Source: Chloroflexota bacterium | GTDB taxonomy: Bacteria > Chloroflexota > Anaerolineae > Aggregatilineales > J027 | Reading direction: 5' to 3' | DNA: 64,000 bases | Assembly: GCA_024434115.1 (NCBI GenBank) | Contig: QMIT01000006.1 | Location: 202,211 to 266,210, forward strand | Shown here: piece after piece, positions 7,822-26,060 of the stretch | How the letters are laid out: the number at the start of each line of letters is the position of its first letter | Numbering within the stretch: the stretch's first letter is position 1 | Position numbers and translations under genes: made by a program | Notes under the pieces: generated by a model | Told to the model about the DNA's origin: nothing | Database searches by the model: none | The model's input: the letters and a program-made list of their open reading frames with translations, nothing else

Positions 7822-8178
7822 GTGTTATCTGATTACGCTCCCATCCTGCCCCTATTTTTGTTGGCGACTGGTGTCGGCATTTTGATCATTTTCCTTTCCC
7901 GCATCTTTGGCCCCTACAATCCCGAACCGCGCAAACAAGCGGTCTATGAAAGCGGGATGCGGCCCATCGGCGGCGGGATGCGAAAAGTACCGATTAAATT
8001 TTATCGGGTGGGCATGTTATTCATTTTGTTCGATATTGAAGTGATCTTTTTCCTGCCTTGGGCAGTGATTTTCCGCGATTTAGGACTCTATGGTTTATTG
8101 GTGATGGGTGTCTTTTTCTTCATCTTGACCGTCGGTTTTGCGTATGAATGGTTAATTGGAGGTCTCGAATGGGAGTAA
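7822..8178 (+). CDS. nuoA: NADH-quinone oxidoreductase subunit A
   Basis: 118 aa, three TM segments, conserved YESGM...FDIE motif, first gene of a syntenic nuoA-N set. GTG start. Confidence 0.9.
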
Positions 8179-8657: not shown

Positions 8658-8661
8658 CACC

Positions 8662-9183: not shown

Positions 9184-9195
9184 GCAGGTAGTGAA

Positions 9196-10452
9196 ATGAC
9201 CGCAGACCCTCAAACGCATCATGCCGTCTGGGAAGGCAACATTGAAGAGCTAAAAGGGCTGGTTTCAGAAAAAGCCTTTTCTGGCGAGAGCATGATTCTC
9301 AATATGGGGCCACAACACCCCAGCACGCACGGCGTTTTGCGTGTGATTCTTGAATTGGAAGGCGAAGAAGTCCTAAGCTGCATCCCCGATGTCGGCTTTC
9401 TCCATACGGGCATTGAAAAAAATATGGAGTACAAGACCTACGAGAAGTCCATCGTCATGACTGACCGCATGGATTATCTCAACCCGATGGGCAATGGTCT
9501 GGTCTACTGCCTTGCGATGGAAAAGTTGTTTGAACTCGATGTGCCCATGCGTGCCCAAATTGCCCGCGTGGTGTTGGCAGAACTGACCCGTATCAACAGC
9601 CATCTGGTTTGGATGGGCATTGGCGGGTTGGACTTGGGTGTGACCAGCACCATGACCTATGCCTTCCGTGAACGGGAAGTGCTGCTCGATATTTTTGAAC
9701 TGGTTTCCGGCCAGCGCATGATGAGCACCTATTTCCGTCCGGGTGGCCTCTGGCGTGATCTGCCGGATGAATTTGAAGGCGCTGTCCAAAATGTGTTGGA
9801 TACCTTCCCGGCCAAGATTGACGACTATGACAAAATCATCACCCAAAATCCTGTATTTGTTGACCGGACGCAGGGGATTGGATTCATCAGTGCCGAAGAT
9901 GCTGTCGCTTATGGGTTAACCGGGGCGGCCCTGCGTGGCTCAGGCGTCAATTGGGACATCCGCAAAGCCATGCCCTATTCTTCCTATGAGCAGTTTGAAT
10001 TTGATGTTCCGCTGGGGCAGCACGGCGACGTGTATGACCGTTTCATCGTGCGGATTGCCGAAATGCGCCAAAGCCTGCGGATTATCGAACAGGGCATGAA
10101 ACGCCTGCAAAAAGAAAAAGGGCCGTTCCGTTCGGACAATCGCAAATATGTGCCGCCGCCGCGTGCCGAACTTGGCCGCAGCATGGAAGCGGTCATTCAT
10201 CACTTCAAGCTGTGGACAGAAGGTTTCCGTCCACCCAAAGGCGAAGTATATGTTTCGATTGAAGGGCCACGCGGCGAATTGGGTTGCTTCCTCGCCAGCG
10301 ATGGATCACCCAACCCGATGCGGGTGCATTTCCGTACCCCATCGTTTGTCAATCTCAGCGCATTGGAAAAACTTTCCAAAAATCACATGATTGCCGACCT
10401 TGTAGGGATTATCGGCAGCATTGATATTGTGCTGGGGGACTGCGATAGATAA
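9196..10452 (+). CDS. nuoD: NADH-quinone oxidoreductase subunit D
   Basis: 49-kDa subunit motifs (NMGPQHPSTHGVLR, HTGIEK, ...DIVLGDCDR C-terminus). Confidence 0.95.
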   Translation: MTADPQTHHAVWEGNIEELKGLVSEKAFSGESMILNMGPQHPSTHGVLRVILELEGEEVLSCIPDVGFLHTGIEKNMEYKTYEKSIVMTDRMDYLNPMGNGLVYCLAMEKLFELDVPMRAQIARVVLAELTRINSHLVWMGIGGLDLGVTSTMTYAFREREVLLDIFELVSGQRMMSTYFRPGGLWRDLPDEFEGAVQNVLDTFPAKIDDYDKIITQNPVFVDRTQGIGFISAEDAVAYGLTGAALRGSGVNWDIRKAMPYSSYEQFEFDVPLGQHGDVYDRFIVRIAEMRQSLRIIEQGMKRLQKEKGPFRSDNRKYVPPPRAELGRSMEAVIHHFKLWTEGFRPPKGEVYVSIEGPRGELGCFLASDGSPNPMRVHFRTPSFVNLSALEKLSKNHMIADLVGIIGSIDIVLGDCDR

Positions 10453-10548: not shown

Positions 10549-11040
10549 GTGCTGGCAGAAAAATACGCGGAACGTATCCACAAAATTTTCAGCAAATATC
10601 CTGACAAACGCTCGGCGGTAATGCCGCTGTTGTATGTCGCACAGGAAGAATTTGGCTGGGTATCACCCGAAGCCATTGAAGAAGTGGCTGTGCTGTGCGA
10701 AATTGACCCCACGCAGGTCAAAAGCATCGCGGGTTTTTACACGATGTATTCCGAAAAACCCAAAGGCAAATATTGGTTACAGGTGTGTACTGATTTTCCT
10801 TGTGCCCTGCGCGGCGCCGATCAATTCCATGAAGCGCTACTGCAACATCTTGGGATTGAAGAGGGCGGCACAACCGAGGACGGCATGTTCACCGTTGAGC
10901 ATGTGATGTGCCTTGCCGCGTGCGACAAAGCACCGATGCTGCAATGCAATTTCCACTATGTCGAAAATTTGGACATGGACAAGATGAAAGCATTGCTCGA
11001 TCAGTGGCGGGCCGACGCCAAAGATTCGGCTGCGGATTAA
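10549..11040 (+). CDS. nuoE: NADH-quinone oxidoreductase subunit E
   Basis: 24-kDa subunit pattern: four Cys of the 2Fe-2S site (VCTDFPC ... CLAACDKAP). GTG start. Confidence 0.9.
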   Translation: MLAEKYAERIHKIFSKYPDKRSAVMPLLYVAQEEFGWVSPEAIEEVAVLCEIDPTQVKSIAGFYTMYSEKPKGKYWLQVCTDFPCALRGADQFHEALLQHLGIEEGGTTEDGMFTVEHVMCLAACDKAPMLQCNFHYVENLDMDKMKALLDQWRADAKDSAAD

Positions 11041-11056: not shown

Positions 11057-11494
11057 ATGCCTTCTGCACCTGTTCGCCTGACCGTCAACGATTACGACGC
11101 CATCATGGAGTTATGGAAAGCCGCTGGATTGACCACCGTCAAACCCACCGGACGTGATTCCCGTGAAGCCTTTGAACAGCAGATGGCACGTGGGATTCAA
11201 GCCGTGATTGGGTTGTATGAAGGTGAGCAGTTGATTGGGCTGGTCATGGCGACCCATGATACTCGCAAAGGCTGGGTGAATCGTCTGGCGGTGCATCCCG
11301 ATTTTCGCGGACAGGGCATCGGTGGGCAGTTGGTGAAAGCCGCCGAGGAGTATCTGGCGTCCGAGGGCATTGGCATTTATGCCGCCATGATTGAGACCGA
11401 CAATGTTGCCAGCCTCGCCACTTTTAAGCGGGCAGGCTACCATGTCCATGAGGATATGGTGTACGTTACCAAACGGATAACCGATGGAATTTAG
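11057..11494 (+). CDS. GNAT-family N-acetyltransferase (inserted in the nuo operon)
   Basis: Acetyl-CoA motif A (LAVHPDFRGQGIGGQLVKAAEEY) and typical ~145-aa size. GGAG SD right after the nuoE stop. Confidence 0.8.
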   Translation: MPSAPVRLTVNDYDAIMELWKAAGLTTVKPTGRDSREAFEQQMARGIQAVIGLYEGEQLIGLVMATHDTRKGWVNRLAVHPDFRGQGIGGQLVKAAEEYLASEGIGIYAAMIETDNVASLATFKRAGYHVHEDMVYVTKRITDGI

Positions 11495-11990
11495 GCCAGA
11501 CCCAAGTGTAGATCAATACGATCAACGGGGCGCGGTTTGGGTAAGTTTGCCATTACTCATTATAGGATTCTTTTTAGTGGCATTTGCCCTTTTTAACGCG
11601 AAATGGCCTCCCGATTACCTCAATTCTGATCCCAGTCAGCGTGTCTCCCATTGGAATCGCATGATGGGTAAAGACAGGCCGATTTTTAATGGGGCAGAAA
11701 TTGAAGTGGAACGTCCCCCCGCTTACCTAGCGCGGCGTATGGTGGACGCAGTAGCCTATATCTCGGTAATGATTGGGGTACTACTGCTGTTGGGGCTGGC
11801 ATGGTGGGGCGAGCGTGTATTTTACCTCCCCCTGATGGTCATTGGATTGTATGGTCTTTTCTATTCGATTGGACTAGGGATTGTCATTGGGCCAATAGTC
11901 GCCATCGCGGGCTACACCCCAATCTTTTTGGGGGCCATCGTTGGCTGGTTGATGACAGATAAAAACACTGAAATAGGATTTACAGGATAG
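11484..11990 (+). CDS. Hypothetical integral membrane protein (inserted in the nuo operon)
   Basis: 168 aa with ~4 hydrophobic helices. Its ATG overlaps the GNAT gene end by 11 nt, and its stop lies 8 nt before the nuoF ATG. Confidence 0.6.
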   Translation: MEFRPDPSVDQYDQRGAVWVSLPLLIIGFFLVAFALFNAKWPPDYLNSDPSQRVSHWNRMMGKDRPIFNGAEIEVERPPAYLARRMVDAVAYISVMIGVLLLLGLAWWGERVFYLPLMVIGLYGLFYSIGLGIVIGPIVAIAGYTPIFLGAIVGWLMTDKNTEIGFTG

Positions 11991-11997
11991 GTTGGAC

Positions 11998-13329
11998 ATG
12001 GCATACATACTCTTGCGCGATTTGGACATTCCCGATATTGGCAAATTAGATGTATACACCGCCAATGAGGGATGGGAAGGCTTTAAAAAGGCCGTTACAC
12101 AGCATACCCCGGAGGAAGTCATCAATATTGTGATTGACTCCAATTTGCGCGGGCGTGGTGGCGCGGGGTTTAGCGCAGGCCGTAAATGGAGCTTTATCCC
12201 CAAAAATGAACCAGTGAAATATGTGGTGGTGAATGCCGACGAAAGCGAACCCGGCACTTTTAAAGATCGCCAGATTATGGAAAAGAACCCCTATCAACTC
12301 ATTGAAGGGGCGATGATCTGTGCCTATGCCATCCAAGCAACAGCGGTTTACATTTACTGCCGGGGTGAGTTTTGGGATTTGGCCCATAACCTCGAAGCCT
12401 GCATTGCCGAAGCCCGCCAGCAAAATTTGATCGGGCAAAACATCCTCGGCGGCAATTGGTCATGTGATATGTTTGTCCATCTCGGCGCGGGGGCGTACAT
12501 CTGCGGGGAAGAAAGCGCCCTGCTAAACAGTCTGCAAGGCTTCTTGGGTCAGCCGCGTGTCCGTCCACCCTTCCCAGCCCAAAAAGGCGGCGGTCTCTAT
12601 TATGAACCCACCGTCGTCAATAATGTTGAAACCCTTGCCAATGTGCCTTGGATCCTCGTCAACGGCGCGGCGGAATATAAAAAGATCGGCACACCTGAAA
12701 GCCCCGGCCCCAAGATTTTCAGCGTCAGTGGGCATGTGGCGCGTCCGGGTAATTATGAAGTGCCGTTGGGCACAACCTTCCGTGAACTGCTGTTTGATAA
12801 GGCGGGTGGCACGGGCACCAATAAAGCCTTTAAAGCCCTACTGCCCTCCGGTGCATCTGGCCCGGTCATCCCGGTGAATGAACAGATGTTGGATACACCC
12901 ATGACCTATGAGGCGCTTGGTAAATTGGGGTCAACGCTCGGCTCGGCCTCGTTCATTTTGATGGACGAAAGCACCGACATGGTGTGGGCCGCCTATAAGA
13001 TGATTAAATTCTTCAAGCATGAAAGCTGTGGCAAATGCACCCCTTGTCGTGAAGGTACACATTGGCTGGCGAAATTGATGGAACACGTCATTCATGGCGA
13101 AGCAACCATGCTTGATCTTGAAAAATTGGAAAATGTCGCCAAGCAAATGAATGGCAAGAGCCTGTGCGCCTTGAACGATTTTGCGATCAATCCCATTCTC
13201 GCCACCTTGAAACATTTCCGCAGCGAATACGTGGCCTATATCAAGACTCCTGCTCCTGCGGCCAAACCCAAACAGCCTGCCCCGATCAAAAAGCAGGTGG
13301 AAGAGGTAGCGGAGCCAGCGGGTGATTAA
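11998..13329 (+). CDS. nuoF: NADH-quinone oxidoreductase subunit F
   Basis: 51-kDa subunit motifs: GRGGAGF (NADH/FMN), ESEPGT, ESCGKCTPCREG (N3 4Fe-4S). ATG 11998 preferred over track TTG 11992. Confidence 0.95.
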   Translation: MAYILLRDLDIPDIGKLDVYTANEGWEGFKKAVTQHTPEEVINIVIDSNLRGRGGAGFSAGRKWSFIPKNEPVKYVVVNADESEPGTFKDRQIMEKNPYQLIEGAMICAYAIQATAVYIYCRGEFWDLAHNLEACIAEARQQNLIGQNILGGNWSCDMFVHLGAGAYICGEESALLNSLQGFLGQPRVRPPFPAQKGGGLYYEPTVVNNVETLANVPWILVNGAAEYKKIGTPESPGPKIFSVSGHVARPGNYEVPLGTTFRELLFDKAGGTGTNKAFKALLPSGASGPVIPVNEQMLDTPMTYEALGKLGSTLGSASFILMDESTDMVWAAYKMIKFFKHESCGKCTPCREGTHWLAKLMEHVIHGEATMLDLEKLENVAKQMNGKSLCALNDFAINPILATLKHFRSEYVAYIKTPAPAAKPKQPAPIKKQVEEVAEPAGD

Positions 13330-13586
13330 TGGCAAACACCGTAGATATGCGCTTGCGGCTGTTGAATCGGGCCATTGAGCAACACCCCGACGCTGCGGTA
13401 AACTACGTGCTGCGTGGGGAATACTGGCTTGCCACCGATGACCGCGCCGCCGCCCAAGCCGATTTTGAGCAGGCCATCTTGTTAGGCATGGTCGAGTTGG
13501 AAGCCAGCGACTGGGGTTATTTGCAGCAAGCCCTGATTGACCGCGCCCGACAAGGTTTGCGGCAGGCAGGTACAGGATTTTTTTGA
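13329..13586 (+). CDS. Small TPR-like hypothetical protein (inserted between nuoF and nuoG)
   Basis: 85 aa with a single TPR-like helix pair (YVLRGEYWLATDDRAAAQADFEQAI). Its ATG overlaps the nuoF stop (TAATG at 13327-13331). Confidence 0.55.
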   Translation: MANTVDMRLRLLNRAIEQHPDAAVNYVLRGEYWLATDDRAAAQADFEQAILLGMVELEASDWGYLQQALIDRARQGLRQAGTGFF

Positions 13587-13671: not shown

Positions 13672-16254
13672 ATGGTAACAATTTATATAGATGGCGTAGG
13701 CTATGAAGTTCCGGCGGGGACAAACTTGGTAGATGTTGCCAAGTTCTATGCCGACAATGATATTCCTGTGTTCTGCTATCATCCTAAGATGACTCCAGTA
13801 GGCATGTGTCGCATGTGTCTGGTGGAGATGGGGTCGGTTGAGAAAGATAAAGAATCCGGTGCGGTGCTGTTGGATGAACAGGGCAGCCCGAAAATTCGCT
13901 GGATGCCCAAAATGCAAACCGCCTGTACCCAAACGGTCTATGACGGCCTTGCCATCCGCACCAACACCCAACAGGTCAAGGAAGCCCGCGAAGATATTGT
14001 CGAATTCCTGCTGACCAGCCACCCGCTCGACTGCCCAGTTTGTGATAAGGGCGGGGAATGCCCGCTGCAAAACCTGACCATGCGGCATGGGCCGGGAGTG
14101 TCGGTCTTCTATTTTGAGGACAAGCTGCACCTCGCCAAACATGTGCCACTGGGGGAGTTGATTTATCTTGACCGCGAACGCTGCATCCAATGTGCCCGCT
14201 GCATCCGCTTCTCGGACGAATTGGCTGGTGACGACGTATTGGCCTTCCATGAACGCGGACGGGCGCTGCAAATTATCACAGTCTCCGATCCACCTTTCGA
14301 CAGCAAATTCAGCGGCAACACCACCGATATTTGCCCGGTGGGTGCATTAACAACCGCCGACTTCCGCTTTGGGGCGCGTCCGTGGGAACTCAAAGAAGTG
14401 CCCAGCATTGACCCCTATGGCCCGGAAGGTGCGAATATCAGCCTCAGCACCCGCCTAGACCGCGATTCGGGTGGGGTCGTCATCATCAAACGGGTAATGC
14501 CGCGCCAGAACGAATATGTCAATGAAATTTGGATTTCCGATAAGACCCGCTTCGGTCATCATCACAGTCGCCATGCAGATCGTTTGGTCGCCCCACTGCA
14601 CCGTGAAAAGACCACCCTCGTTGAAACGACTTGGGACAAAGCCTTCAAACAGGTCATTGATAAATTGAAGGGTGCGGCCAGTGTTGGCGCGATTGCTGGC
14701 CCCGGTCTCTCCAATGAAGACCTGTGGGAACTGCGTCAACTGGTGCTGACAGCAGGTGGCAGCGAAAAATCATTGGGCATTTGGCCCGCCACGATGAGCG
14801 GCGGTGAAGTCGTCAAGCAGGTCGGCATTACCAAAGGGTCGACCTTCAATACGATGGGCAAGGGCACTGTCATTGTCCTCGTTGCTACCGACCTTGAAGA
14901 AGAAGCGCCCATTTGGTGGCTGCGTGCAAAAGCGGCCCGTGATCGTGGCGCGACGGTGGTCGTGTTGAATGGTCGCCCCACCAAGATGGATCGCTATGCC
15001 AAATTCTCGCTGCGTTATGACTATGGCGATGCGGTAGGTGCAGTCAACAGCCTGACGGCCCACATTGTCAACGGCAACCATCACAAAGCAGACCGCGCCG
15101 AAGGTTTTGCCGATTTGCAAAAGGCCCTCAAGAAGGTGAAGGCCGATGACCGTTACACCGCCGCTGCTGAAGCCATTGCAGATGCGGATAACGTGGTCGT
15201 GTTCTGTGGGGCGGAAGGCGTGACATTGGCCCAACATGCCGAATTGATGCAAGCCTGCGCCAACACGCTGACTTTGACCGGGCATGTCGGACGGGTAAAC
15301 AATGGCCTGATTCCCGTGTGGCCGGGTGCCAATACACAGGGCGCGATTGACTTGGGCTACACGGCTGAGGCCACCGCCGAACTGCTGCAAAATCCTCCAT
15401 CTGTGCTGATTTTGGCGGGCTGCAACCCTGTCGGGGAAGACATCGCCGCTGCCAATCTCAAGAACGCCGATTTTGTCATCGTCACCTCCCAATTTGACAC
15501 GGCCACAACGGAAATCGCCGATGTCGTGCTGCCCCAGCAAAGTTTTGCCGAGCGTGAAGGCACATTCACCAGCGGCGAACGACGGGTACAGCGGTTTTAT
15601 GCGGCGCAAGGGGTCATTGGGGAAAGCCTGCCCGATTGGAAGATTTTCACCCAAGTACGCCATGCTATTGATAAAACCACCGCCAAAGTGTCGGCGGGTG
15701 CGGTGATGGCAGAAATTACGAGATCAGTAGCGGCCTACAGCGAGATGGGCTATAAAAATCTCGCCCAAGTGGAACGCCAATTCCCGGACGTCGGCGGCAC
15801 CGACCAATATTATGGTGGAACCGCCTATCAAAACACGGGCGGCATTGGAGTCCAGTGGCCTGTATCAGCCGAAAACGTCGAGGCCAAGTTGAAGGTCGCC
15901 GCTGTTACTGCTGAAAAATCAAAGGCGAAGGGGCTGCTGGTTGTGCCCACGACCCTATTGTATGACCGGGGGATGCTGTTTGTCCGCAGTGAGATTATGT
16001 CCCTGCGTATTCCACCCGCCCATGCCAATTTCAACCCTGCCGATGCCCAAAAACTGAAACTTCAGGACGGGGACACGGTTGAAATGAATCTCGAAGGGGC
16101 AAGCCTCACCGTTCAGGTAATCATAAATGAAACGATTCCGGCGGGGGTGATTACCCTGCCCAAATGCCTAAGCGAGCAACCCGGCCCATTTGCGCCAATG
16201 GTCGCAGGCAGTATTGAAAAAGTTGCCCAAGCACTAGCTGCAACTGGGGATTAA
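13672..16254 (+). CDS. nuoG: NADH-quinone oxidoreductase subunit G
   Basis: N-terminal 2Fe-2S ferredoxin fold (CYHPKM...CRMCLVE), 4Fe-4S motifs (HPLDCPVCDKGGEC, CIQCARC), then a molybdopterin-oxidoreductase-like domain. Confidence 0.93.
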   Translation: MVTIYIDGVGYEVPAGTNLVDVAKFYADNDIPVFCYHPKMTPVGMCRMCLVEMGSVEKDKESGAVLLDEQGSPKIRWMPKMQTACTQTVYDGLAIRTNTQQVKEAREDIVEFLLTSHPLDCPVCDKGGECPLQNLTMRHGPGVSVFYFEDKLHLAKHVPLGELIYLDRERCIQCARCIRFSDELAGDDVLAFHERGRALQIITVSDPPFDSKFSGNTTDICPVGALTTADFRFGARPWELKEVPSIDPYGPEGANISLSTRLDRDSGGVVIIKRVMPRQNEYVNEIWISDKTRFGHHHSRHADRLVAPLHREKTTLVETTWDKAFKQVIDKLKGAASVGAIAGPGLSNEDLWELRQLVLTAGGSEKSLGIWPATMSGGEVVKQVGITKGSTFNTMGKGTVIVLVATDLEEEAPIWWLRAKAARDRGATVVVLNGRPTKMDRYAKFSLRYDYGDAVGAVNSLTAHIVNGNHHKADRAEGFADLQKALKKVKADDRYTAAAEAIADADNVVVFCGAEGVTLAQHAELMQACANTLTLTGHVGRVNNGLIPVWPGANTQGAIDLGYTAEATAELLQNPPSVLILAGCNPVGEDIAAANLKNADFVIVTSQFDTATTEIADVVLPQQSFAEREGTFTSGERRVQRFYAAQGVIGESLPDWKIFTQVRHAIDKTTAKVSAGAVMAEITRSVAAYSEMGYKNLAQVERQFPDVGGTDQYYGGTAYQNTGGIGVQWPVSAENVEAKLKVAAVTAEKSKAKGLLVVPTTLLYDRGMLFVRSEIMSLRIPPAHANFNPADAQKLKLQDGDTVEMNLEGASLTVQVIINETIPAGVITLPKCLSEQPGPFAPMVAGSIEKVAQALAATGD

Positions 16255-16259
16255 ATGCC

Positions 16260-17615
16260 ATGATGGACTTTCTTGAACAACTCTTAATGGGGCCAAATGA
16301 CCCCAACTCAATTGTTACGTGTTCCAGCAATTCGACCTGCTCGACGGTTCATGCCATCGTCACAACCTTGTTGGTCTTTTTTGTGCTGCTGACTGGGTTC
16401 GCCTATACCACTGTGCTGGAACGCCGCTTCATCAGTTTTATGCAATCCCGGCTTGGGCCAAATCGTGCTGGCCCCAAAGGTCTGCTGCAACCCGTGTCGG
16501 AAGGGGTAAAGCTGATCTTTAAGGAAGAAATCATTCCCGATGGCGCGGATCGAGCCGTTTATTCCTTTGCCCCGCTGCTCAAACTCGTCCCATCATTGAT
16601 TGTCTTGGCCGTTGTGCCGCTCGGCCCCAATGTTTACATTCCTTGGTTTGACGACAAGTGGTACGAGATGGCGCAGGGTTTCACCGATGTCAATGTCGGG
16701 GTACTGTGGCTGTTGGCCGTGACCAGCATCAGCGTCTATGGCATCACCCTTGCCGGCTGGGCCAGCAATAACAAATATGCGTTGTTGGGTGCGTTGCGGG
16801 CCAGTGCCAGCATGATTAGTTATGAACTCAGCCTCGGAACGGTTTTTGCCGTGCCGATTATGTTGGCAGGTTCGATGAGCATTGGCGACATCATTGGCGA
16901 ACAATCAGGCCTGTTCCTCAAATGGTTCATTTTCCAGAACCCTCTTGCCGCGATTATTATGTTTATCGCGCTGATGGCCGAAATCAGCCGTGCGCCGTTT
17001 GATATGCCCGAAGCCGAGCAGGAATTGGTAGCAGGCCATATCACCGAATACAGCGGAATGAAGTTCGCCATGTTCTTCCTTGCCGAATACGTCAACATGA
17101 TTGGCATCTCGGTCATTTTCGTCACCATGTTTATGGGTGGCTATCACGACGGCTTCGGATTGGTACAAGGTGCGCCGCTCTTAGCTCTGCCAGTGTTAAT
17201 CGGTAAGGTCATCCCCTTCCTGATTATTATGGTCTGGGTGCGAGGGAGCATCTTCCGCCCCCGTTATGACCGCCTGATGGCCTTTGGGTGGAAAGTCCTG
17301 CTGCCCCTCTCAATGCTGGCCGTCGCATGGACAGCCGTTTCAATTGTGATCGAGCAAGAAGGTGGCTCCACGGCCTATCTGATTTCGGTGGCAATCCTCT
17401 TTGTGATCGTCGGTGCGTTGGGCTATCTGTTTAATCGCAGCACCACGCCGGAAACCGTGCTTAACATAGACGAAGTTGAATCAGAAAAACTCGGCTTCGG
17501 CTATTATGTGCTGCAATTTGTGGGAGGTATCCTGTCCATCCCGTTTGTGGCCTATGAAGCCGCCAAGAATCTCCGACCCGGTGGTTCCAAAAAAGAAGCC
17601 AAAGCAAAATCATAG
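16260..17615 (+). CDS. nuoH: NADH-quinone oxidoreductase subunit H (with N- and C-terminal extensions)
   Basis: Conserved ERRFISFMQSRLGPNR, YELS, APFDMPEAEQELVAG, EYS. 451 aa against ~330-365 typical. Confidence 0.93.
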   Translation: MMDFLEQLLMGPNDPNSIVTCSSNSTCSTVHAIVTTLLVFFVLLTGFAYTTVLERRFISFMQSRLGPNRAGPKGLLQPVSEGVKLIFKEEIIPDGADRAVYSFAPLLKLVPSLIVLAVVPLGPNVYIPWFDDKWYEMAQGFTDVNVGVLWLLAVTSISVYGITLAGWASNNKYALLGALRASASMISYELSLGTVFAVPIMLAGSMSIGDIIGEQSGLFLKWFIFQNPLAAIIMFIALMAEISRAPFDMPEAEQELVAGHITEYSGMKFAMFFLAEYVNMIGISVIFVTMFMGGYHDGFGLVQGAPLLALPVLIGKVIPFLIIMVWVRGSIFRPRYDRLMAFGWKVLLPLSMLAVAWTAVSIVIEQEGGSTAYLISVAILFVIVGALGYLFNRSTTPETVLNIDEVESEKLGFGYYVLQFVGGILSIPFVAYEAAKNLRPGGSKKEAKAKS

Positions 17616-17644: not shown

Positions 17645-18139
17645 ATGGGTTTGATTAATGGATTGATGACCACCATCAAGCATGTGCTTCAGGAAAAGGC
17701 GACCTTTCAGTATCCTGAAATTGAACGGCCTGTGCGCGAACGCTATAAGGGCCGCCATGCGTTGAAGCGTTATGAAAATGGGATGGAAAAATGTATCGGG
17801 TGTGCGCTGTGTGCCGCCGCCTGCCCTGCCGATGCCATCTGGGTTGAGGCCGCCGAAAACACCGATGATGAGCGTTATAGCCCCGGTGAACGTTATGCCA
17901 AAACCTATGAAATCAACATGCTGCGCTGCATCTTCTGTGGGTATTGCGAAGACGCCTGCCCCACTGAAGCCATTGTATTGGAACATGAATACAAATTGAG
18001 CTTCACGGATCGGCGCGACTCGATTTACACCAAAGATGTGTTGATTGATCCGGTGCCGCCGGGGGGTCAAGATACACCCCATCAGGTGGAGCCACACAGC
18101 TATGATCGGCCCATTCCAGACATGGAAAATCCGAAATAA
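17645..18139 (+). CDS. nuoI: NADH-quinone oxidoreductase subunit I
   Basis: Two 4Fe-4S ferredoxin motifs (CIGCALCAAACP, CIFCGYCEDACP). Confidence 0.95.
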   Translation: MGLINGLMTTIKHVLQEKATFQYPEIERPVRERYKGRHALKRYENGMEKCIGCALCAAACPADAIWVEAAENTDDERYSPGERYAKTYEINMLRCIFCGYCEDACPTEAIVLEHEYKLSFTDRRDSIYTKDVLIDPVPPGGQDTPHQVEPHSYDRPIPDMENPK

Positions 18140-18280: not shown

Positions 18281-19582
18281 ATGGTAGGCACAGAATTAGC
18301 TCTGTTTATCATGATTGGGGCGCTTTCGATCCTTGCCGCCGTCATGATGCTGATTAGTGAAAATGCCATACACAGTGCATTGTTTCTTATTATAAACTTT
18401 GCGTGTGTGGCGTTTCTCTATCTGATGCTCAATGCACCGTTCCTGTTTGCCGTGCAAATTACGGTCTATGCAGGCGCAATCATGGTCTTATTTCTATTCG
18501 TGATCATGTTGATGGGTGCCGAGCGTGTTTTACCCCAAGAGACACAGCGCTTTCCATGGCTGGCTCCTGCCACACTTGGCGTCACGATGGTGATTTTGTT
18601 TGTAGCGGGTCTCGCCATTATCCGCAGCGATCTTGATACCAGCGAACCCGAACCTGCCGAACCCATTTTCCGTTTTGTTCACGCTGCCGCCGGAACCGAC
18701 GCGGTAGATGTCTATATTGACGGCGAAAAGGTGGTCTCGGATCTGCTCTATCGGGAAGCCTCCGATTTTGAGGAATTCCCAGCCGGCAGTTACACCGCGC
18801 AGGTCGTTCCACATGAGGCCGAACTGCTCCCAGAAAATATCGTGTTGGAAACCCCGGTTTTTCTGGCAGGTAATGGCGTCCTCTCGTACGTTTTGACTGC
18901 CGATGCTGCCAATGGCGGAGTACAGGCGTTGCAAGTTGAGGGGCGCATTGACCCGAACGACGAAAAAGATATTGCCCGCCTAACGGTGGTTCATGCAATT
19001 CCGTGTGCGGATGGCACAACCACTTGCTCGATTGAAGTCGCGGACATCACCGAACCCGGTGACGACCCGATGGTGCTGGTCAAGAGTCTCGATTATGGTC
19101 AAGCCGCCCATTTTGAAATCAAAGAGGGCGAATATACCCTAGCGTCCTATCCTCAAGGTGACATTCGCGCAGCGATTGATGAACGCGGCGACGGTGATGA
19201 AAAACTTGACCTAGATGCGCTGGTACAGGTAGACGAAAAAGTCATTGACCAAAATACCGGGGTGTTGTGGGTTGTCACCCAAGATACGACGGGTGGCACA
19301 ATCCGTCCCAAAATTTTGTGGTTCGCGCTGGATAACAATCCCGATTTTGGTAGTGGAGAGGGGATAGGCCAACTCTTGTTTACCGATTACCTGCTGCCAT
19401 TTGAAGTGATCGGCTTGCTGCTGCTGACGGCGATGGTCGGGGTGATTGTATTGACCAAACAACATGAAACACCCAAGAAGCCGCGTTTCCGCCGTCGGAT
19501 GGCAAATGTTCCCGGCAACCCAACGGTTGAAGAATATATGCAGTCCTTACGCAAGAATCCAGCCGATAGCAGCGGTGATTAA
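18281..19582 (+). CDS. nuoJ: NADH-quinone oxidoreductase subunit J carrying a large DUF4397-like insertion
   Basis: NuoJ TM1-4 (aa 1-114) and the conserved [22 protein letters not shown] segment (aa ~365-390) are separated by ~245 aa. 433 aa against ~170-210 typical. Confidence 0.85.
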
Positions 19583-19592: not shown

Positions 19593-19907
19593 ATGGATAA
19601 GCCAGAAGTCGCTACCGAATTATATGTATTGTTGAGCGCGGTGTTGTTTACCCTCGGCTCAATGGGTGTGCTGCTGCGTCGGAATGCCATCTTGATTTTC
19701 ATGTCCATTGAGTTAATGCTGAACTCAGCGAACTTGGCGCTGGTGGCCTTTGCACGCCAGTGGAATCAGATGGATGCACATTTGATGGTGTTTTTTGTGA
19801 TGACCGTCGCTGCTGCCGAAGTTGCAGTCGGGTTGGCCTTAATTGTCACCATCTACCGCACCAGACAAAGCACCGATGTGGACGATTTACATGCGTTGCA
19901 GGGTTAA
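19593..19907 (+). CDS. nuoK: NADH-quinone oxidoreductase subunit K
   Basis: 104 aa, three TM segments, conserved [11 protein letters not shown] and [10 protein letters not shown] motifs. ATG 19593 has an AAGGGAAGG SD; the track ORF start at 19464 lies inside nuoJ. Confidence 0.92.
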
Positions 19908-19939: not shown

Positions 19940-22345
19940 ATGGAAGGTTTTTATTCTGCGGTTTCATTGGTAGTCATTGTCCCTTTGCTGGGGATGCTGA
20001 CCAACCTCTTTTTTGGCAAAAAGCTAGGGGAAAAAGGCGCCGGATTCATCGCGGTCAGTGCCAGCGCATTTGCGTTTGTCGTCGCGCTGATTTTATGGGC
20101 CACGCTGGTGGATCAACACTACGAACCTGCCATCGTCAACGCCCCGCTGATTCATTCGTGGATTTCTATCCCATCAGCAGGTATTGATATTCCTTGGCAG
20201 TTCCGTGTAGACACCCTCAGCGTCACCATGATGTTGGTGGTGACCGGGGTCGGAACGCTCATCCACATTTATGCTACTGGCTATATGCACGGGGATGAAC
20301 GGTTCCCGCGCTTTTTTGTCTATCTCAATTTGTTCTTGGTATTCATGCTGATTCTGGTGACGGGCAATAACCTGTTGGTGATGTTCGTCGGCTGGGAAGG
20401 CGTGGGCTTGTGTTCGTTCCTCCTCATCGGCTTCTGGTTTGATAAACCCGGCAAACATCCCACCGAAGGCACAGTTGGCTGGTCGAACAGTAACGCGGCA
20501 CGCAAGGCCTTTATTGTCAACCGTATCGGCGACTTCGGCCTACTGATGGGGATTTTCTTGACCTTCTGGACGTTTGGCACGCTCGATTATTACAAACCCC
20601 ACGAAGTTATCCATCTGGAACATGATGAAGCCCCCCCACCCGTCTTTGCCGTTGAAGGGACGGAAGCGGAAGCCGAGGGCGAACCTACTGGCGAGGCGGC
20701 CCATGCTGAATCTGGCAGTGAGATTCATGGCATTTATACACAGGCCGAACTCTGGTTTGAAGAAGGCAATCACAAAGTTAGTTTTGGTTCAATTGACCTC
20801 GACTTTGATGCCGTTATCACCCTGATTACACTGTTTTTCCTGCTCGGGGCAACCGGCAAGAGTGCCCAAATTCCGCTGTTTGTATGGCTGCCCGACGCGA
20901 TGGCAGGCCCAACCCCCGTCAGTGCGTTGATTCACGCTGCAACGATGGTAACGGCGGGAATCTATATGATGGTGCGGTCAAATTCCTTCTTCTATAACTC
21001 CGACCTCACCTCGTTTGTCGTGACGATTATCGGGATTTCAACCGCCCTTGCCGCTGGGTTTATGGCATTGGGGCAATGGGACATCAAGAAAGTGCTGGCC
21101 TATTCAACCGTCAGCCAATTAGGGTTCATGGTCGCCGCCGTCGGGTTGGGGGCCTATGCCGCTGCGATGTTCCACCTTGTCACCCATGCGTTTTTTAAGG
21201 CCCTGTTGTTCCTCGGCTCCGGCTCAGTCATCCACGCGATGGAGCATGGGCATCACCACGCGCATGAACATGGGCACGATCATGATGAACATAGCGACGA
21301 GCACGATGAACACGCCGAACATGAGGCGCATGACGAACACGCGACCCACACCCATCATGATGACCACGAATTCGACCCTCAAGACATGCGCAATATGGGG
21401 GGTCTGCGAAAACTCAGTGTTACCTTCTGGACATATCTCGTCGGTGGGTTAGCACTAGCGGGTATCTTCCCATTCGCGGGCTTCTGGTCAAAAGATGAAA
21501 TCATCGCTGATGCCTTTACTGTCGGTTTTGATGAGGGTGAACTCAAGGGGTATCTAGCCATCGCTGTATTACTCGCCGCCGCTGCGATGACCGCCTTCTA
21601 TACATGGCGTCAAATTTGTCTTGTGTTTTTTGGCAAGCCGCGTACCGCCGCCGCTGAACATGCCCCCGAAAGTTCAGCCTTGATGACAACCCCGCTGGCG
21701 ATTTTAGCGATAGGGACGTTCCTCATTGGGTTCATCATTAACGCACCAAAGGGCTTCCCGATTTTTGGCTGGATGTTTGGAGAACACCGCTTCACCTTGT
21801 TCCTTGAAGAAAGTGTCATCCACGCTCACGCCGGGTCGTTCAATTGGTTTATGGCAATTCTAGCGACGGGTATCGCCCTAGCCATGATTGGCATTGCGGA
21901 CTCGATCTATCGTAAGCCAATGCCCATTCCGATGGAACAAGACCCATTGGAAGAAAATCCGCAGACCCAACCCTTGTTTGCGCTCTCAAACGCCAAACTC
22001 TATTGGGACGAGGCTTATTTCAAATACATCGTCTATCCCTTCCAAGGGGCAGCGCGATTCCTTGCCAATACCATTGACTGGGATTTCTGGCACAACTTTT
22101 TCCATGACCGCATCATTGGACAAGGCTTCCAAGGAGCGGCAGATGTCATCAGCCAACCGATTGACCGCCAAGTGGTGGACAAAGGGTTTATGTCGCTGGC
22201 AACGGGTGTTTTGGCGGCGGCATCACGGCTGCGTAAGACCCAAACAGGCTATGTGCGTACTTATGCGCTCTCGCTGATGATGGGCGTATTGTTAGTCATC
22301 GTAATTATTCTGTTTCCCACGCTGCGTGATCTGCTGGGAATCTAG
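19940..22345 (+). CDS. nuoL: NADH-quinone oxidoreductase subunit L (with two insertions)
   Basis: Antiporter-like subunit motifs (VGWEGVGLCSFLLIGFW, GKSAQIPLFVWLPDAMAGPTPVSALIHAATMV, AYSTVSQLG). 801 aa against ~610-670 typical. Confidence 0.93.
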   Translation: MEGFYSAVSLVVIVPLLGMLTNLFFGKKLGEKGAGFIAVSASAFAFVVALILWATLVDQHYEPAIVNAPLIHSWISIPSAGIDIPWQFRVDTLSVTMMLVVTGVGTLIHIYATGYMHGDERFPRFFVYLNLFLVFMLILVTGNNLLVMFVGWEGVGLCSFLLIGFWFDKPGKHPTEGTVGWSNSNAARKAFIVNRIGDFGLLMGIFLTFWTFGTLDYYKPHEVIHLEHDEAPPPVFAVEGTEAEAEGEPTGEAAHAESGSEIHGIYTQAELWFEEGNHKVSFGSIDLDFDAVITLITLFFLLGATGKSAQIPLFVWLPDAMAGPTPVSALIHAATMVTAGIYMMVRSNSFFYNSDLTSFVVTIIGISTALAAGFMALGQWDIKKVLAYSTVSQLGFMVAAVGLGAYAAAMFHLVTHAFFKALLFLGSGSVIHAMEHGHHHAHEHGHDHDEHSDEHDEHAEHEAHDEHATHTHHDDHEFDPQDMRNMGGLRKLSVTFWTYLVGGLALAGIFPFAGFWSKDEIIADAFTVGFDEGELKGYLAIAVLLAAAAMTAFYTWRQICLVFFGKPRTAAAEHAPESSALMTTPLAILAIGTFLIGFIINAPKGFPIFGWMFGEHRFTLFLEESVIHAHAGSFNWFMAILATGIALAMIGIADSIYRKPMPIPMEQDPLEENPQTQPLFALSNAKLYWDEAYFKYIVYPFQGAARFLANTIDWDFWHNFFHDRIIGQGFQGAADVISQPIDRQVVDKGFMSLATGVLAAASRLRKTQTGYVRTYALSLMMGVLLVIVIILFPTLRDLLGI

Positions 22346-22366: not shown

Positions 22367-23902
22367 ATGCAACTCGAAACAACAAGCGTTTCGCTAACAA
22401 GCGTCACTCTCTTTGCGCCGATGGTCGGCTTCTTCATTCTGCTGTTTTTAAACAAGCTGAGTGATGAGCGGATTAAATGGGGGGCGTTGATTACCTCCCT
22501 CATTACCCTCGGCTTCTCCATTTTGCTGCTGGCCCAATTTAAGAGTGACGAAACCGGGCTGCAATCAGAGCACATTGCCGAATGGATTCCCACCTTTGGG
22601 ATTTATTATCATGTCGCGGTAGATGGGGTTAGTATTTGGCTGGTCATGTTGACCACCTTCATCATGCCCCTGTCTATCCTGATTTCCTTTAACATGATCC
22701 ATGAGCGCATCCGGCTCTATTACCTGTTCATGCTGCTCATCGAATTTGCGATGCTCGGTGTGTTCGTAGCGCAGGATATGTTCTTGTTCTACGTGTTCTG
22801 GGAATTGACCCTTGTGCCGATGTATTTCCTTATCGGGATTTGGGGCGGCGAAGAACGACGTTATGCGGCGGTCAAGTTCTTCCTCTACACAATGGCTGGC
22901 TCGATTCTGATGCTGCTGGCGATTTTGTGGCTGGGGAATGAAGCAGACACATTCGACGTGAAGGTGATTACCGAGATGGTGCAAAGCGGCGCGTTGAGCT
23001 TCGGCACCGACACGGAACGCTTGCTGTTCTTGGGTTTCTTCATCGCGTTTGCCATCAAAGTTCCGCTGTGGCCGTTGCACTCATGGCTGCCGGATGCCCA
23101 CGTCCAAGCCCCTACGGCTGGCTCAATCATCCTAGCGGGTATCTTGCTGAAACTGGGGACATACGGGTTGATCCGCTTTAATCTCGGCTTCTTCCCGAAT
23201 GCCGCCGCCGATTTTGCCCCTTGGATTGCGGCCCTCGCCGTCATCGGCATTATTTATGGCGCATGGGTGGCCTACGCCCAAACCGATGTCAAGAAATTGG
23301 TTGCCTATACCTCGGTCAGCCACCTCGGTTTTGTAGTGTTGGGCATTTTCTCGCTGACCAGCAGTGGGGTACAAGGCGCGGTGCTGCAAATGGTGAATCA
23401 CGGCATTAGTACGGGCGGATTGTTCGCACTGGTCGGGATTTTGTATGACCGTCGCCACACCAAAGCGATTAATGCCTTCGGGGGTATCTGGAAGGTCATG
23501 CCTCTGTTCAGTGGTATCGCGTTGGTGATTTCGCTGTCCAGCATGGGTCTACCCAGTTTAAACGGCTTCGTCGGTGAATTCGCCATTCTGCTTGGCTCTG
23601 CCAGTTCAGAAGTCTTGAGCATCTGGTTTACGGCTGTCGCCACCCTCGGTGTGATTTTGGCAGCCGTGTACACCCTGTTCATGTTCAATAAGGTCTTTAT
23701 GGGGCCGCTGGACAAGAAAGAAAATCAGGAACTCGAAGACCTGACATGGAGCAAGAATTGGACGGAACTCGGCGCGTTGGTGCCGCTGGTCATCATGATT
23801 TTTGTGATTGGCCTCTATCCCAGCCCATTCTTTGAATTGATGGATGGCTCGGTTGGACACTTGGTGAATTTTGTCCACACGGTTGCCGTCGCGGGTAAAT
23901 AA
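22367..23902 (+). CDS. nuoM: NADH-quinone oxidoreductase subunit M
   Basis: Antiporter-like motifs (FYVFWELTLVPMYFLIG, KVPLWPLHSWLPDAHVQAPTAGS, AYTSVSHLG). Confidence 0.93.
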   Translation: MQLETTSVSLTSVTLFAPMVGFFILLFLNKLSDERIKWGALITSLITLGFSILLLAQFKSDETGLQSEHIAEWIPTFGIYYHVAVDGVSIWLVMLTTFIMPLSILISFNMIHERIRLYYLFMLLIEFAMLGVFVAQDMFLFYVFWELTLVPMYFLIGIWGGEERRYAAVKFFLYTMAGSILMLLAILWLGNEADTFDVKVITEMVQSGALSFGTDTERLLFLGFFIAFAIKVPLWPLHSWLPDAHVQAPTAGSIILAGILLKLGTYGLIRFNLGFFPNAAADFAPWIAALAVIGIIYGAWVAYAQTDVKKLVAYTSVSHLGFVVLGIFSLTSSGVQGAVLQMVNHGISTGGLFALVGILYDRRHTKAINAFGGIWKVMPLFSGIALVISLSSMGLPSLNGFVGEFAILLGSASSEVLSIWFTAVATLGVILAAVYTLFMFNKVFMGPLDKKENQELEDLTWSKNWTELGALVPLVIMIFVIGLYPSPFFELMDGSVGHLVNFVHTVAVAGK

Positions 23903-23987: not shown

Positions 23988-25514
23988 ATGTTTTCAACCC
24001 CCACGTTTGATGAATTGAATATTTGGGCCGCGCTGCCCATGATGGCACTGGCTCTTGGCACCTGCATTCTGCTGGTTGCCGACCTGTTCATTCCCAAAGA
24101 TAAAAAGGTCTATACAGCGGCATTGGCAGGCATAGGTTTGGGCGTTTCGCTTTTGATTGCCCTGCTCCAAGCGTCGGGTGTCGAAATCGGCGATAAACCC
24201 ACCGCCTTTGAGGGTATCTTTGTAGTAGACCAGTTCACCCATGTGGTGAATGTCATTTCCCTCATGGCAGGCATCATTGGCATTATGGTGTCGTATGATT
24301 ATCTCGAACGCACCGGTACAGAACGCGGCGAATTTTACACCCTGATACTCTTCAGTACACTCGGTGCGATGCTGATGGGGTCGTCCCGCAATTTGGTGAT
24401 GATCTTTATCGCCCTCGAACTGCTCTCGATTCCGTTGTATATCCTCTCCGGGTTCCGCCGTCCCATGCTGGAAAGCGAAGAAAGCGCCATGAAATATTTC
24501 TTGCTCGGCGCGTTCTCATCCGGCTTTCTGGTCTACGGCATCGCCCTAATTTATGGCGCGACAGGTAGCTTTGAATTGGTCAACGTCTGGCAGACCGCCG
24601 TTGATATTCTCGAAGGTGAAGGCGCGGGTCAATTTACCCTGCTGATTGGCATTGCTATGGTGCTAATCGCGCTCGGTTTCAAGGTCGGGGCGGTGCCGTT
24701 CCATATGTGGCAACCTGATGTGTATCAGGGTGCGCCTACCCCCGTGACCGCCTTCATGAGCGTCACCGCCAAAACAGGTGGATTTGCCGCCATGCTGCGT
24801 GTACTAGTAACGGGTCTTGCCGTCGTATCCGCCTCACAGGGCAAAGCCATTGATGTCTGGCAGGATTCGGTGCAGGTCATCGCGGTCTTGACCCTGATTT
24901 TAGGCAATTTTGTTGCCATCACCCAAACCGACCTCAAGCGTATGCTGGCCTATTCGAGCATCGCGCACGGCGGGTACATCCTGATTGCGATTGCAGCCGG
25001 GGGTACGTTCGGCGTTGGGGATAGCTCCGCCCAAGCCGCGCTGGTCTATCTGATGGCCTATACCTTTACCAACATTGGGGCATTTGCGGTGGTAATCGCG
25101 TTGGAACGCAGCGAACGCAACACCATTACTCTGAACGATACCAAAGGTCTGGCCCAGCACAGCCCTCTGCTTGCCGCCGCCATGACCATTTTTATGCTCA
25201 GTCTGACAGGTGTGCCGTTAACCGCCGGGTTCATTGGCAAATTCTTTGTGTTTAAGGCCGCGCTGGAAGCCAATCTTGAAGTCTTGGCGGTCATCGGTGT
25301 GTTGGCGAGTGTCGTCTCGGCATACTACTATCTACGCATCATCGTGAATATGTATATGGTCGAAGGTGATGCCCACCCGGTTTCTGAGAAACAACCGCTG
25401 GCCCTTCGTTCGGCCCTTTGGCTAACGGCAATGGGCACCTTGATTCTGGGGATTCTGCCCTATATCATGACCGACCTTGCCCGCGATGTCACACTGGCGA
25501 TTGTAGGCCGATAA
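23988..25514 (+). CDS. nuoN: NADH-quinone oxidoreductase subunit N
   Basis: Antiporter-like motifs (ALELLSIPLY, KVGAVPFHMWQPDVYQGAPTPVTAF, AYSSIAHGG). Last gene of the nuo series. Confidence 0.93.
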   Translation: MFSTPTFDELNIWAALPMMALALGTCILLVADLFIPKDKKVYTAALAGIGLGVSLLIALLQASGVEIGDKPTAFEGIFVVDQFTHVVNVISLMAGIIGIMVSYDYLERTGTERGEFYTLILFSTLGAMLMGSSRNLVMIFIALELLSIPLYILSGFRRPMLESEESAMKYFLLGAFSSGFLVYGIALIYGATGSFELVNVWQTAVDILEGEGAGQFTLLIGIAMVLIALGFKVGAVPFHMWQPDVYQGAPTPVTAFMSVTAKTGGFAAMLRVLVTGLAVVSASQGKAIDVWQDSVQVIAVLTLILGNFVAITQTDLKRMLAYSSIAHGGYILIAIAAGGTFGVGDSSAQAALVYLMAYTFTNIGAFAVVIALERSERNTITLNDTKGLAQHSPLLAAAMTIFMLSLTGVPLTAGFIGKFFVFKAALEANLEVLAVIGVLASVVSAYYYLRIIVNMYMVEGDAHPVSEKQPLALRSALWLTAMGTLILGILPYIMTDLARDVTLAIVGR

Positions 25515-25541: not shown

Positions 25542-26060
25542 ATGAGCAATATAGTGATTGGTGAACCGCTGGCTTCACGGTTACGGGCGCTGGCGGAACA
25601 AAAACATCAAGCATTAGAGGAATTTCTCGAAACGCTCATTGAAGCCTCCGAAAAAGATGCACTGCCGCCACCCTATAACCCCGATTATCCCTCCCGCCCC
25701 GCTGAGAGCCTAACAGACGACGATATAGACCTGCCAGATAAAGTTGAAGATGTGGAAGCGTATCGGGCGGCTGTGCGGGCCATGCGACCCAAGCTGTATG
25801 AAAAAGCCCGCCGCTATTGGCAGAAAATGGGGGATACCGACAAACTGGCCCTCACTGATGAGCAGTTAGATAAGGTGTTTTGGCTCATTGATGCTGAGGG
25901 CATTCCCCGCTTCAAATCCGAAAAAGGGACGATTGTTATCCCCCCCGATCCATTTGATGACATCATGGGCATTTTTGATGATGACATCTCGGATTTATCC
26001 TCTACGGTAAACGAATCCGTCGCCGAATATTTCCGCCAAAAACATGACCGTACTGATTGA
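25542..26060 (+). CDS. Putative antitoxin (unusually long, 172 aa) paired with the PIN toxin
   Basis: Its end overlaps the following PIN gene by 17 nt. The N-terminus is RHH/CopG-like by eye (NIVIGEPLASRLRALAEQKHQALEEFLETLIE). Acidic C-terminus. The family call is weak. Confidence 0.5.
   Translation: MSNIVIGEPLASRLRALAEQKHQALEEFLETLIEASEKDALPPPYNPDYPSRPAESLTDDDIDLPDKVEDVEAYRAAVRAMRPKLYEKARRYWQKMGDTDKLALTDEQLDKVFWLIDAEGIPRFKSEKGTIVIPPDPFDDIMGIFDDDISDLSSTVNESVAEYFRQKHDRTD

Follow-up and report, generated by a model that had tools for sequence, protein, structure and literature searches.

A Chloroflexota NuoJ whose short TM4-TM5 (transmembrane helices 4 and 5) loop is replaced by two tandem DUF4397 domains

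The nuo operon and its nuoJ gene

The window analysed here is a stretch of 64,000 nucleotides from a Chloroflexota bacterium (assembly GCA_024434115.1, contig QMIT01000006.1, positions 202,211 to 266,210 of the forward strand), and it contains a complete nuoA-N operon for NADH-quinone oxidoreductase (complex I). Genes are arranged in the order A-B-C-D-E-(two additional open reading frames, ORFs)-F-(one additional ORF)-G-H-I-J-K-L-M-N. The subject of this analysis is nuoJ. Its product (NuoJ/ND6) ranks among the smallest and most constrained of the complex I core subunits and is located at the junction that couples the quinone site to the proton pumps. In the window this gene is unusually long, and a first-pass annotation made from the sequence alone had described it as split by an insertion with two DUF4397-like repeats. 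Its parts were delimited by using profile searches, an AlphaFold2 (AF2) model and alignment to solved chains, as follows (residues in amino acids, aa; transmembrane helices as TM; HMM, hidden Markov model).

18281-19582, + strand: nuoJ, 433 aa plus stop, a single ORF with the whole insert (ORF list; PF00499 in two stretches)
18281-18625, + strand: NuoJ N-terminal core, TM1-TM4 with the conserved TM3 motif, aa 1-115 (AF2 helices, hydropathy, 8e9g_J alignment)
18626-18664, + strand: acidic, Pro-rich linker after TM4, aa 116-128 (conservation; unstructured in AF2)
18665-19006, + strand: DUF4397 beta-sandwich domain 1, aa 129-242 (PF14344, AF2)
19004-19027, + strand: Cys242...Cys249 pair at the junction of domains 1 and 2, candidate disulfide (paired presence in homologues)
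19007-19336, + strand: diverged DUF4397-like beta-sandwich domain 2, aa 243-352 (hhalign, domain-2 HMM, AF2)
19337-19465, + strand: pre-TM5 segment and canonical TM5, aa 353-395 (second PF00499 stretch, AF2, 8e9g_J alignment)
19466-19579, + strand: basic C-terminal tail, predicted cytoplasmic, aa 396-433 (9 Lys and Arg in the window sequence)

The family profile PF00499 (Oxidored_q3) matched the nuoJ ORF with an E value of 4e-39 and 134.1 bits (cutoff 33.2) in two stretches around the insert, namely aa 20-115 and the C-terminal helix. NCBIfam NuoJ equivalog models also matched in two pieces, all under their cutoffs (best NF005165, 135.6 bits vs 192), a shortfall that is explained by the split match and the divergent loop and not by loss of the core. 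Helices were modelled by AF2 at residues 3-25, 29-49, 55-80 and 94-115 in the N-terminal core, for which hydropathy was also run, and at 359-368 and 371-393 (TM5) in the C-terminal part. Alignment of the window protein with 49 homologues starts at residue 1, and F356, G357 and G363 of the pre-TM5 segment are invariant in the homologue alignment.

Canonical NuoJ/Nqo10/ND6 chains from E. coli (3rko_J, 184 aa), T. thermophilus (4he8_J, 176 aa) and M. smegmatis (8e9g_J, 252 aa) served as comparators. Five TM helices, the TM3 motif, the pre-TM5/TM5 motif and the position between nuoI and nuoK are common to them and the window protein. Query residues 4-112 were aligned to residues 18-127 of 8e9g_J and query residues 356-403 to residues 143-189, and residue-level alignment flanks the insert on both sides in this chain and in 9g83_J. 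The difference lies in the TM4-TM5 loop, which has about 16 residues in 8e9g_J and 16-24 residues over the same columns in short-form Chloroflexota NuoJ, whereas the window loop has about 243 and holds two beta-sandwiches. The insertion length of about 245 aa given in the first-pass annotation stands for the loop as a whole; the net gain over the canonical loop is smaller, about 225 residues. In the PDB sequence search the insert was matched by no NuoJ or other complex I chain, so that no comparable domain on NuoJ was seen among solved complex I structures. Judged by sequence, the nuoJ ORF is a genuine single-polypeptide NuoJ (ND6) of a 14-subunit enzyme, with two DUF4397 (Ig-like beta-sandwich) domains in tandem where the short TM4-TM5 loop would be expected.

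Domain structure and conserved residues of the insert

The hydrophilic block first noticed at 18623-19360 corresponds to aa 115-360, and the three peptide strings originally quoted from the 433-aa ORF were found at aa 130-176, 234-245 and 269-290. DUF4397 (PF14344) matched aa 131-242 with an E value of 3.5e-14 and 53.8 bits (cutoff 30.6; profile positions 4-112 of 119), or 56.0 bits when the insert was searched alone. Matches to the Pfam profiles of NuoJ and DUF4397 therefore both exceed their cutoffs in one ORF, as the first-pass annotation had expected. In the AF2 model, built from a 50-sequence alignment, the predicted local distance difference test (pLDDT) score is above 90 over nearly all of aa 129-351, and two all-beta domains lie between TM4 and TM5. 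Domain 1 has eight strands across aa 129-238 (pLDDT above 90), and domain 2 has strands over aa 251-351 (pLDDT approximately 87-95) and one short helix at aa 294-302.

Domain 2 was not reported by Pfam as DUF4397. Comparison of the profile of aa 126-242 with that of aa 243-352 (hhalign, 50 homologues) gave a probability of 96.4% and an E value of 1.3e-9, and an HMM of domain 2 alone matched 105 of 139 unrelated multi-repeat DUF4397 proteins. By profile similarity, domain 2 is a real, diverged DUF4397 copy; the two repeats proposed at the outset were recovered by hhalign, by the domain-2 HMM and as two beta-sandwiches in the AF2 model.

Conserved insert positions are P123 and P128 of the linker (kept in 92% of homologues), R131, D143, G169, G273, G293 and L329. 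To these are added the repeat-core aromatics Y145, Y157, F163, Y171, Y272, Y290 and W330, some of which recur in both domains (Y157/F163/Y171 and Y272/Y290). Conservation across the 50 homologues revealed no cluster of Cys, His or Asp of a metal- or cofactor-binding type in the insert, and a catalytic or cofactor role was rejected on this ground.

Membrane side and charge of the insert

In order to place the insert relative to the membrane, Lys and Arg densities were compared across the 50 homologues. The TM3-4 loop and the C-terminal tail each had 0.17, against 0.06 for the insert, and the value was 0.00 for both the N-terminus and the TM2-3 loop, a distribution that under the positive-inside rule puts the insert outside. 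The TM3-4 loop of ND6/NuoJ is on the cytoplasmic (matrix) side in complex I structures, so the TM4-5 loop would be on the P side. Cysteines were present in the insert in pairs (n = 20) or not at all (n = 30), never singly, and both always fell in the C242/C249 columns. This all-or-none presence suggests a disulfide, which fits an extracytoplasmic location. A signal-like hydrophobic segment at the N-terminus, often accompanied by a lipobox-like Cys, is present in 109 of the 127 nearest non-NuoJ DUF4397 relatives whose sequence begins with Met. In E. coli NuoJ, Glu142 and Ser145 at the start of TM5 belong to a hydrophilic region that may connect to the periplasmic surface (PMC8357420). The outward orientation predicted by the first-pass annotation thus has good indirect support from the charge distribution, the Cys pair, the signal-like N-termini of relatives and known NuoJ topology. 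The insert would project outwards at the complex I heel, on the P face, beside NuoH, NuoA and NuoK.

The insert is the most acidic segment of the window, with a net charge of -0.14 per residue, approximately 4 standard deviations (SD) from the mean of the 29 other window proteins (mean -0.034, SD 0.026, minimum -0.111). None of the 50 homologues departs from this, their inserts having net charges of -3 to -50 (median -29), and the acidity may simply reflect habitat. One sub-group of homologue clusters (P0046, P0095 and P0120, 474-482 aa) has an extra Asp/Glu/Ala-rich low-complexity loop of roughly 60-70 residues inside domain 1, which makes the ectodomain yet more acidic.

An electrostatic or proton-handling function would make use of this charge: an acidic domain over the outer end of NuoA/J/K (the E-channel) could collect or buffer protons or bind cations, and in this way tune proton release or surface potential. 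The consistent acidity, the long Asp/Glu-rich loops added in some variants (P0046, P0095) and the position of TM5, whose start in E. coli NuoJ borders a hydrophilic route to the periplasmic surface (PMC8357420), are all compatible with it. Only D143 (88%) is conserved among individual acidic residues, however, and net charge varies widely between homologues. Acidity is also common in extracytoplasmic domains of marine or saline organisms, and canonical complex I works without such a domain. We regard this function as improbable.

Distribution, selection and origin

A homologue search of 5.8 billion proteins yielded 1085 relatives, and architecture was assessed in the 120 best clusters. PF14344 and PF00499 occurred together in all of these except P0098, which has no precomputed PF14344 hit and keeps the insert and a length of 450 aa. 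Such recurrence goes far past what chance would give. Full-length members range from 393 to 482 aa with inserts of 224-282 aa, they stem from NCBI, ENA, JGI and Logan assemblies, and their named sources are Chloroflexota, Anaerolineae, Anaerolineales, Aggregatilineaceae and Phototrophicales. Within the 90% cluster of the window protein, 10 of 11 members have the full protein or a truncated copy containing the N-terminal half. The exact window protein is present in the collection, and close copies from Chloroflexota metagenome-assembled genomes (MAGs), GIK65063.1 and NOG63705.1, have the product names "hypothetical protein" or "DUF4397 domain-containing protein".

Selection was estimated from ratios of nonsynonymous to synonymous substitution (dN/dS, Nei-Gojobori) between the window gene and those of loci L081 and L082. 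The insert gave 0.070 and 0.057, and TM1-4 gave 0.067 and 0.073; domain 1 gave 0.03-0.06 against close orthologues. These values indicate that the insert is under purifying selection. Mean pairwise identity in the 50 homologues was 28-32% in the insert and 63-68% in the TM core (68% in the N-terminal core). Such faster divergence is expected of a folded surface domain, not of junk.

The fusion might instead be an error of assembly or annotation, or a tolerated insertion that has no function. Two records could be read in this way: on a near-identical contig in NCBI (P0124) the gene is annotated as a 170-aa C-terminal fragment only, and in L010 nuoJ is broken across frames. The start of the P0124 fragment is an internal Met in an unchanged frame, however, and in L010 the adjoining nuo genes are fragmented as well, which indicates sequencing errors. 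The uninterrupted fused ORF recurs in many independent assemblies from all four sources, dN/dS in the insert is about 0.06, and length and fold are kept down to 36% identity. An artefactual fusion, which the first-pass annotation had named as a refuting condition, was therefore rejected, and the probability of an artefact or a neutral passenger is close to negligible.

Both records bear on annotation in their own right. The P0124 fragment (MBL1135600.1) corresponds to window positions ~19073-19579, the last 170 aa, and is named "NADH-quinone oxidoreductase subunit J". Naming is inconsistent, in that the 433-aa protein of a same-length contig is called "hypothetical" or "DUF4397 domain-containing" elsewhere. 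At L010 the long-form nuoJ (6213-7201) extends over two frames in a MAG labelled "uncultured Actinomycetota"; frameshifts are likely there, and the bin label may be wrong.

The origin of the insert was approached through a tree of NuoJ and through relatives of the insert. A neighbour-joining tree of the TM core only (145 columns, no bootstrap values) placed 12 of 12 long forms in one clade, apart from 23 short-loop Chloroflexota NuoJ that included Chloroflexus, Anaerolinea thermophila and Ca. Leptofilum. One long-form clade suggests that the insert was acquired once. When every + strand ORF of 80 loci was scanned with an HMM, DUF4397 was found only inside long nuoJ and never as a separate gene, which disposes of a reservation about the original reading, and no other DUF4397 ORF was found in any of the six frames of the window. 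A HMMER pass with the insert over 1.84 billion cluster representatives returned 1018 proteins at E <= 1e-3. The best non-NuoJ relatives among them are large and consist almost wholly of DUF4397 repeats, 4-13 in number. Since the nearest relatives are secreted tandem-DUF4397 proteins, the insert derives from that pool. Domain 1 belongs to PF14344 proper and domain 2 is a divergent member; unlike the repeats of the secreted proteins and of AlgF, those described here are embedded in a polytopic respiratory subunit.

Structural analogues

The AF2 model of the insert was compared with the PDB using Foldseek. The top matches were the extracellular domains of the peptide transporters PepT1 and PepT2 (7s8u, 7pmy_A and 5a9i_A), with E values of 2e-8 to 4e-8 (for 5a9i_A, E 4e-8 and a TM-score of 0.67 normalised to the target). 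Weaker matches were Bacteroides fimbrial or "adhesion" proteins, pilins, the HGSNAT luminal domain and the AlgF C-domain. The PepT extracellular domain consists of two tandem immunoglobulin (Ig)-like folds in an extracellular loop of a polytopic transporter (PMC4597091). It is without counterpart in bacterial homologues, is separable from transport and has trypsin as a bound partner (PMC4597091). PepT1 and PepT2 (SLC15A1/2; 5a9d, 5a9i, 7pmy and 7s8u) thus resemble the window protein in carrying a tandem Ig-like pair between two TM helices, in a loop that is extracytoplasmic in PepT and predicted to be so in NuoJ, and their hosts are likewise polytopic, proton-coupled membrane proteins. The host is a major facilitator superfamily (MFS) transporter there and a complex I subunit here, and the kingdoms differ. 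Identity to PepT was 9-14% in structural alignments, and no PepT chain appeared in the PDB sequence search. The likeness is best described as an analogy of design, not family membership.

AlgF (PF11182; 6czt, 6d10), a family linked by Pfam to DUF4397, is a periplasmic protein of two beta-sandwiches that acts as a protein-protein adaptor and does not bind alginate (PMC10641220). The PF11182 profile gave sub-threshold matches to window NuoJ (12.9-13.8 bits vs a cutoff of 34.4), the PDB sequence match had an E value of 0.86, and the Foldseek match to the AlgF C-domain (6d10) was weak (E 7e-3). Membership in AlgF was rejected on the sub-threshold PF11182 match.

These comparisons also bear on a tether to the envelope, in which the beta-sandwich pair would bind polysaccharide or protein material of a wall, sheath or S-layer and so position complex I relative to the envelope of these filamentous bacteria. 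DUF4397 repeats are found chiefly in large repeat proteins that are secreted or lie at the cell surface, Foldseek matched the insert to Bacteroides "cell adhesion" and fimbrial proteins and to pilins, and some multi-repeat relatives have sub-threshold hits to CBM_4_9 or AMPK1_CBM. The adhesin and pilin matches have root-mean-square deviations of 17-23 A and low TM-scores, however. None of the stretches with carbohydrate-binding hits passes alone, and these hits overlap DUF4397 repeats. No conserved surface tryptophan or aromatic platform was seen in the insert, whose conserved aromatics follow the repeat-core pattern, and the characterised relative AlgF does not bind its polysaccharide (PMC10641220). 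An envelope tether or glycan binder is considered unlikely.

Additions of a comparable kind are known within complex I itself. Extensions and insertions specific to E. coli complex I stabilise the enzyme and occupy the space that supernumerary subunits take up in other species (PMC8357420). The NuoJ insert resembles the E. coli NuoG "G-loop" and C-terminal tails, T. thermophilus Nqo15 and mitochondrial accessory subunits in being a lineage-confined addition without catalytic residues. The E. coli examples (PMC8357420) lie on the cytoplasmic peripheral arm; the present one is a two-domain module, predicted on the outer face of the membrane arm.

Operon context and enlargement of other subunits

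The remaining nuo genes, the enlarged parts of NuoH and NuoL and the additional ORFs of the operon are located as follows.

7822-8178, + strand: nuoA
8148-8657, + strand: nuoB
8662-9183, + strand: nuoC
9196-10452, + strand: nuoD
10549-11040, + strand: nuoE
11057-11494: GNAT acetyltransferase, 145 aa, between nuoE and nuoF
11484-11990: 168-aa multi-TM protein, no Pfam match; overlaps the GNAT gene, and the pair abuts nuoF
11992-13329, + strand: nuoF
13329-13586: 85-aa ORF between nuoF and nuoG, no Pfam match
13672-16254, + strand: nuoG
16260-17615, + strand: nuoH
17367-17615: NuoH C-terminal extension, ~80-100 aa; an acidic loop separates two additional predicted TM helices, and the tail is rich in Lys
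17645-18139, + strand: nuoI
19593-19907, + strand: nuoK
19940-22345, + strand: nuoL
~20591-20806: NuoL insertion 1, acidic, ~72 aa, before TM7
21245-21373: NuoL insertion 2, 43 aa, rich in His, Asp and Glu (HGHHHAHEHGHDHDEHSDEHDEHAEHEAHDEHATHTHHDDHE), just before the conserved DMRxMGGL motif
~21740-22080: NuoL insertion 3, an extra stretch of ~110 aa before the C-terminal part
22367-23902, + strand: nuoM
23988-25514, + strand: nuoN

Gene order is kept in loci L081-L086, including nuoJ between nuoI and nuoK, and operon synteny persists at NuoJ identities as low as 37-48%. Two further ORFs flank the operon. A 274-aa ORF (6488-7312), about 500 bp upstream of nuoA, has a signal-peptide-like N-terminus (MRHIRRLLLIAALLYTFG) and no Pfam match. 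A very acidic 172-aa ORF (25542-26060; net -0.093 per residue) of no obvious family comes immediately after nuoN. Its synteny is kept neither in L082 nor in L081, which has a DUF433/DUF5615 pair at that place.

Long-form NuoJ was accompanied by enlargement of two other membrane subunits. Window NuoH has 451 aa and is extended by about 25 aa at its N-terminus; the C-terminal extension listed above recurs across long-NuoJ loci. NuoH alignments reach window residues 400-451 in long-NuoJ loci vs approximately 365-385 in most short-NuoJ loci. Aligned NuoL residues number 756-845 in long-NuoJ loci vs 620-738 in short-NuoJ loci, and window NuoL (801 aa) has the three insertions listed above relative to M. 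smegmatis NuoL. The His-rich loop of insertion 2 looks, from its composition, like a metal-binding tract.

The 85-aa ORF occurs in L081-L086 (all six exact-protein loci), and tblastn located it in seven further loci of the genome scan, L001-L004 and L007-L009. It is thus present in every long-form operon with enough upstream sequence, the frameshifted L010 excepted, and tblastn detected it in no short-form locus. The GNAT gene and the multi-TM gene (~150-168 aa) occur in some long-form operons but not in all. These extra genes are candidate accessory subunits or assembly factors. At L086 (cluster P0098, 37-38% NuoJ identity), a membrane-anchored ORF of 616 aa without a Pfam match lies between nuoI and nuoJ (8056-9906). 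Its GDS(M)-type motif, IAVIGDSM, recalls SGNH hydrolases, a curious likeness because AlgJ and AlgX, the partners of AlgF-type beta-sandwich proteins, are SGNH-like. With one instance only, coincidence may be the explanation.

An ectodomain of this kind might serve as a dock for a respiratory partner, recruiting alternative complex III, an oxidase or an accessory protein encoded in the operon into a supercomplex. Both tandem beta-sandwich analogues, the PepT extracellular domain and AlgF, bind other proteins, and long-form operons have extra conserved genes that could supply a partner (the 85-aa ORF, and the ~150-168-aa multi-TM protein in L081, L083 and L084). The product of the 85-aa ORF lacks both a signal peptide and TM segments, however, and probably resides in the cytoplasm; the multi-TM protein is missing from L085 and L086, and no partner was identified. 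A dedicated respiratory dock is distinctly unlikely as a separate explanation; it overlaps with the interpretation preferred below and is not exclusive of it.

Interpretation

The evidence narrows the role of the insert towards a structural or protein-interaction module. We interpret it as a scaffold or interaction domain without catalytic function, attached to the complex I heel on its outer face, with a probability of roughly one half that is shared between a clamp and a dock; a structural role is the most likely outcome. The insert would act as a built-in accessory domain. It would either be a clamp across the outer surface of the membrane arm, comparable to the supernumerary subunits and lineage-specific extensions of other complex I enzymes, or hold a partner there. 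It would also belong to a clade-specific elaboration of complex I, together with the enlarged NuoH, the enlarged NuoL and the 85-aa gene.

A scaffold role is suggested because the conserved positions are glycines, prolines and core aromatics, with no His/Cys/Asp cluster, and because the sequence diverges fast while length and fold persist. The best structural match, the PepT domain, binds a protein partner and is separable from transport, and E. coli-specific extensions of complex I stabilise the enzyme (PMC8357420), both of which point in the same direction, as does the co-occurrence of the NuoH and NuoL enlargements with long NuoJ. Three observations weigh against a scaffold. The insert is poorly conserved, as a decoration under weak constraint would be too; its strong, conserved acidity is unaccounted for by a simple clamp and could point to another role; and the co-occurrence of NuoH, NuoL and the 85-aa ORF may reflect shared ancestry only.

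The NuoJ ectodomain suggests itself as part of a wider remodelling of complex I, although the co-occurrences may be purely phylogenetic. In its strongest form, this proposal holds that a large Chloroflexota clade independently evolved an "elaborated" complex I with an outer-face superstructure composed of the NuoJ ectodomain, the NuoH helices, the NuoL insertions and small accessory proteins, in which the ectodomain docks an envelope or respiratory partner or shapes proton release. We offer it tentatively, as a possibility on the doubtful side of even. If true, the elaborated Chloroflexota complex I would be a bacterial parallel to the accessory subunits of the mitochondrial intermembrane space.

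Significance

Literature on DUF4397 and on NuoJ or complex I in Chloroflexi was searched, and no paper describing the fused architecture was found, as judged partly by title or abstract. The architecture is already visible in public annotation (the Pfam domain pair and NCBI product names), without a published description having been found. Sub-cutoff NuoJ scores together with names such as "DUF4397 domain-containing" or "hypothetical" mean that complex I can look incomplete in metabolic reconstructions of these organisms.

Bacterial complex I is, to our knowledge, usually viewed as "minimal", with essentially no protein mass on the outer membrane face, and we know of accessory protein mass on that face only from mitochondrial complex I. 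A complex I specialist would find a folded outer-face mass on a bacterial NuoJ surprising. For the DUF4397 family, which is uncharacterised, the NuoJ ectodomain would supply a first defined molecular context. One loop in one gene would also give a genetic handle on what outer-face mass does for stability, positioning, partner recruitment and proton release. A conserved and selected two-domain NuoJ ectodomain, found in more than 100 clusters of Anaerolineae-type Chloroflexota, would mean that bacteria too can decorate the outer face of complex I.

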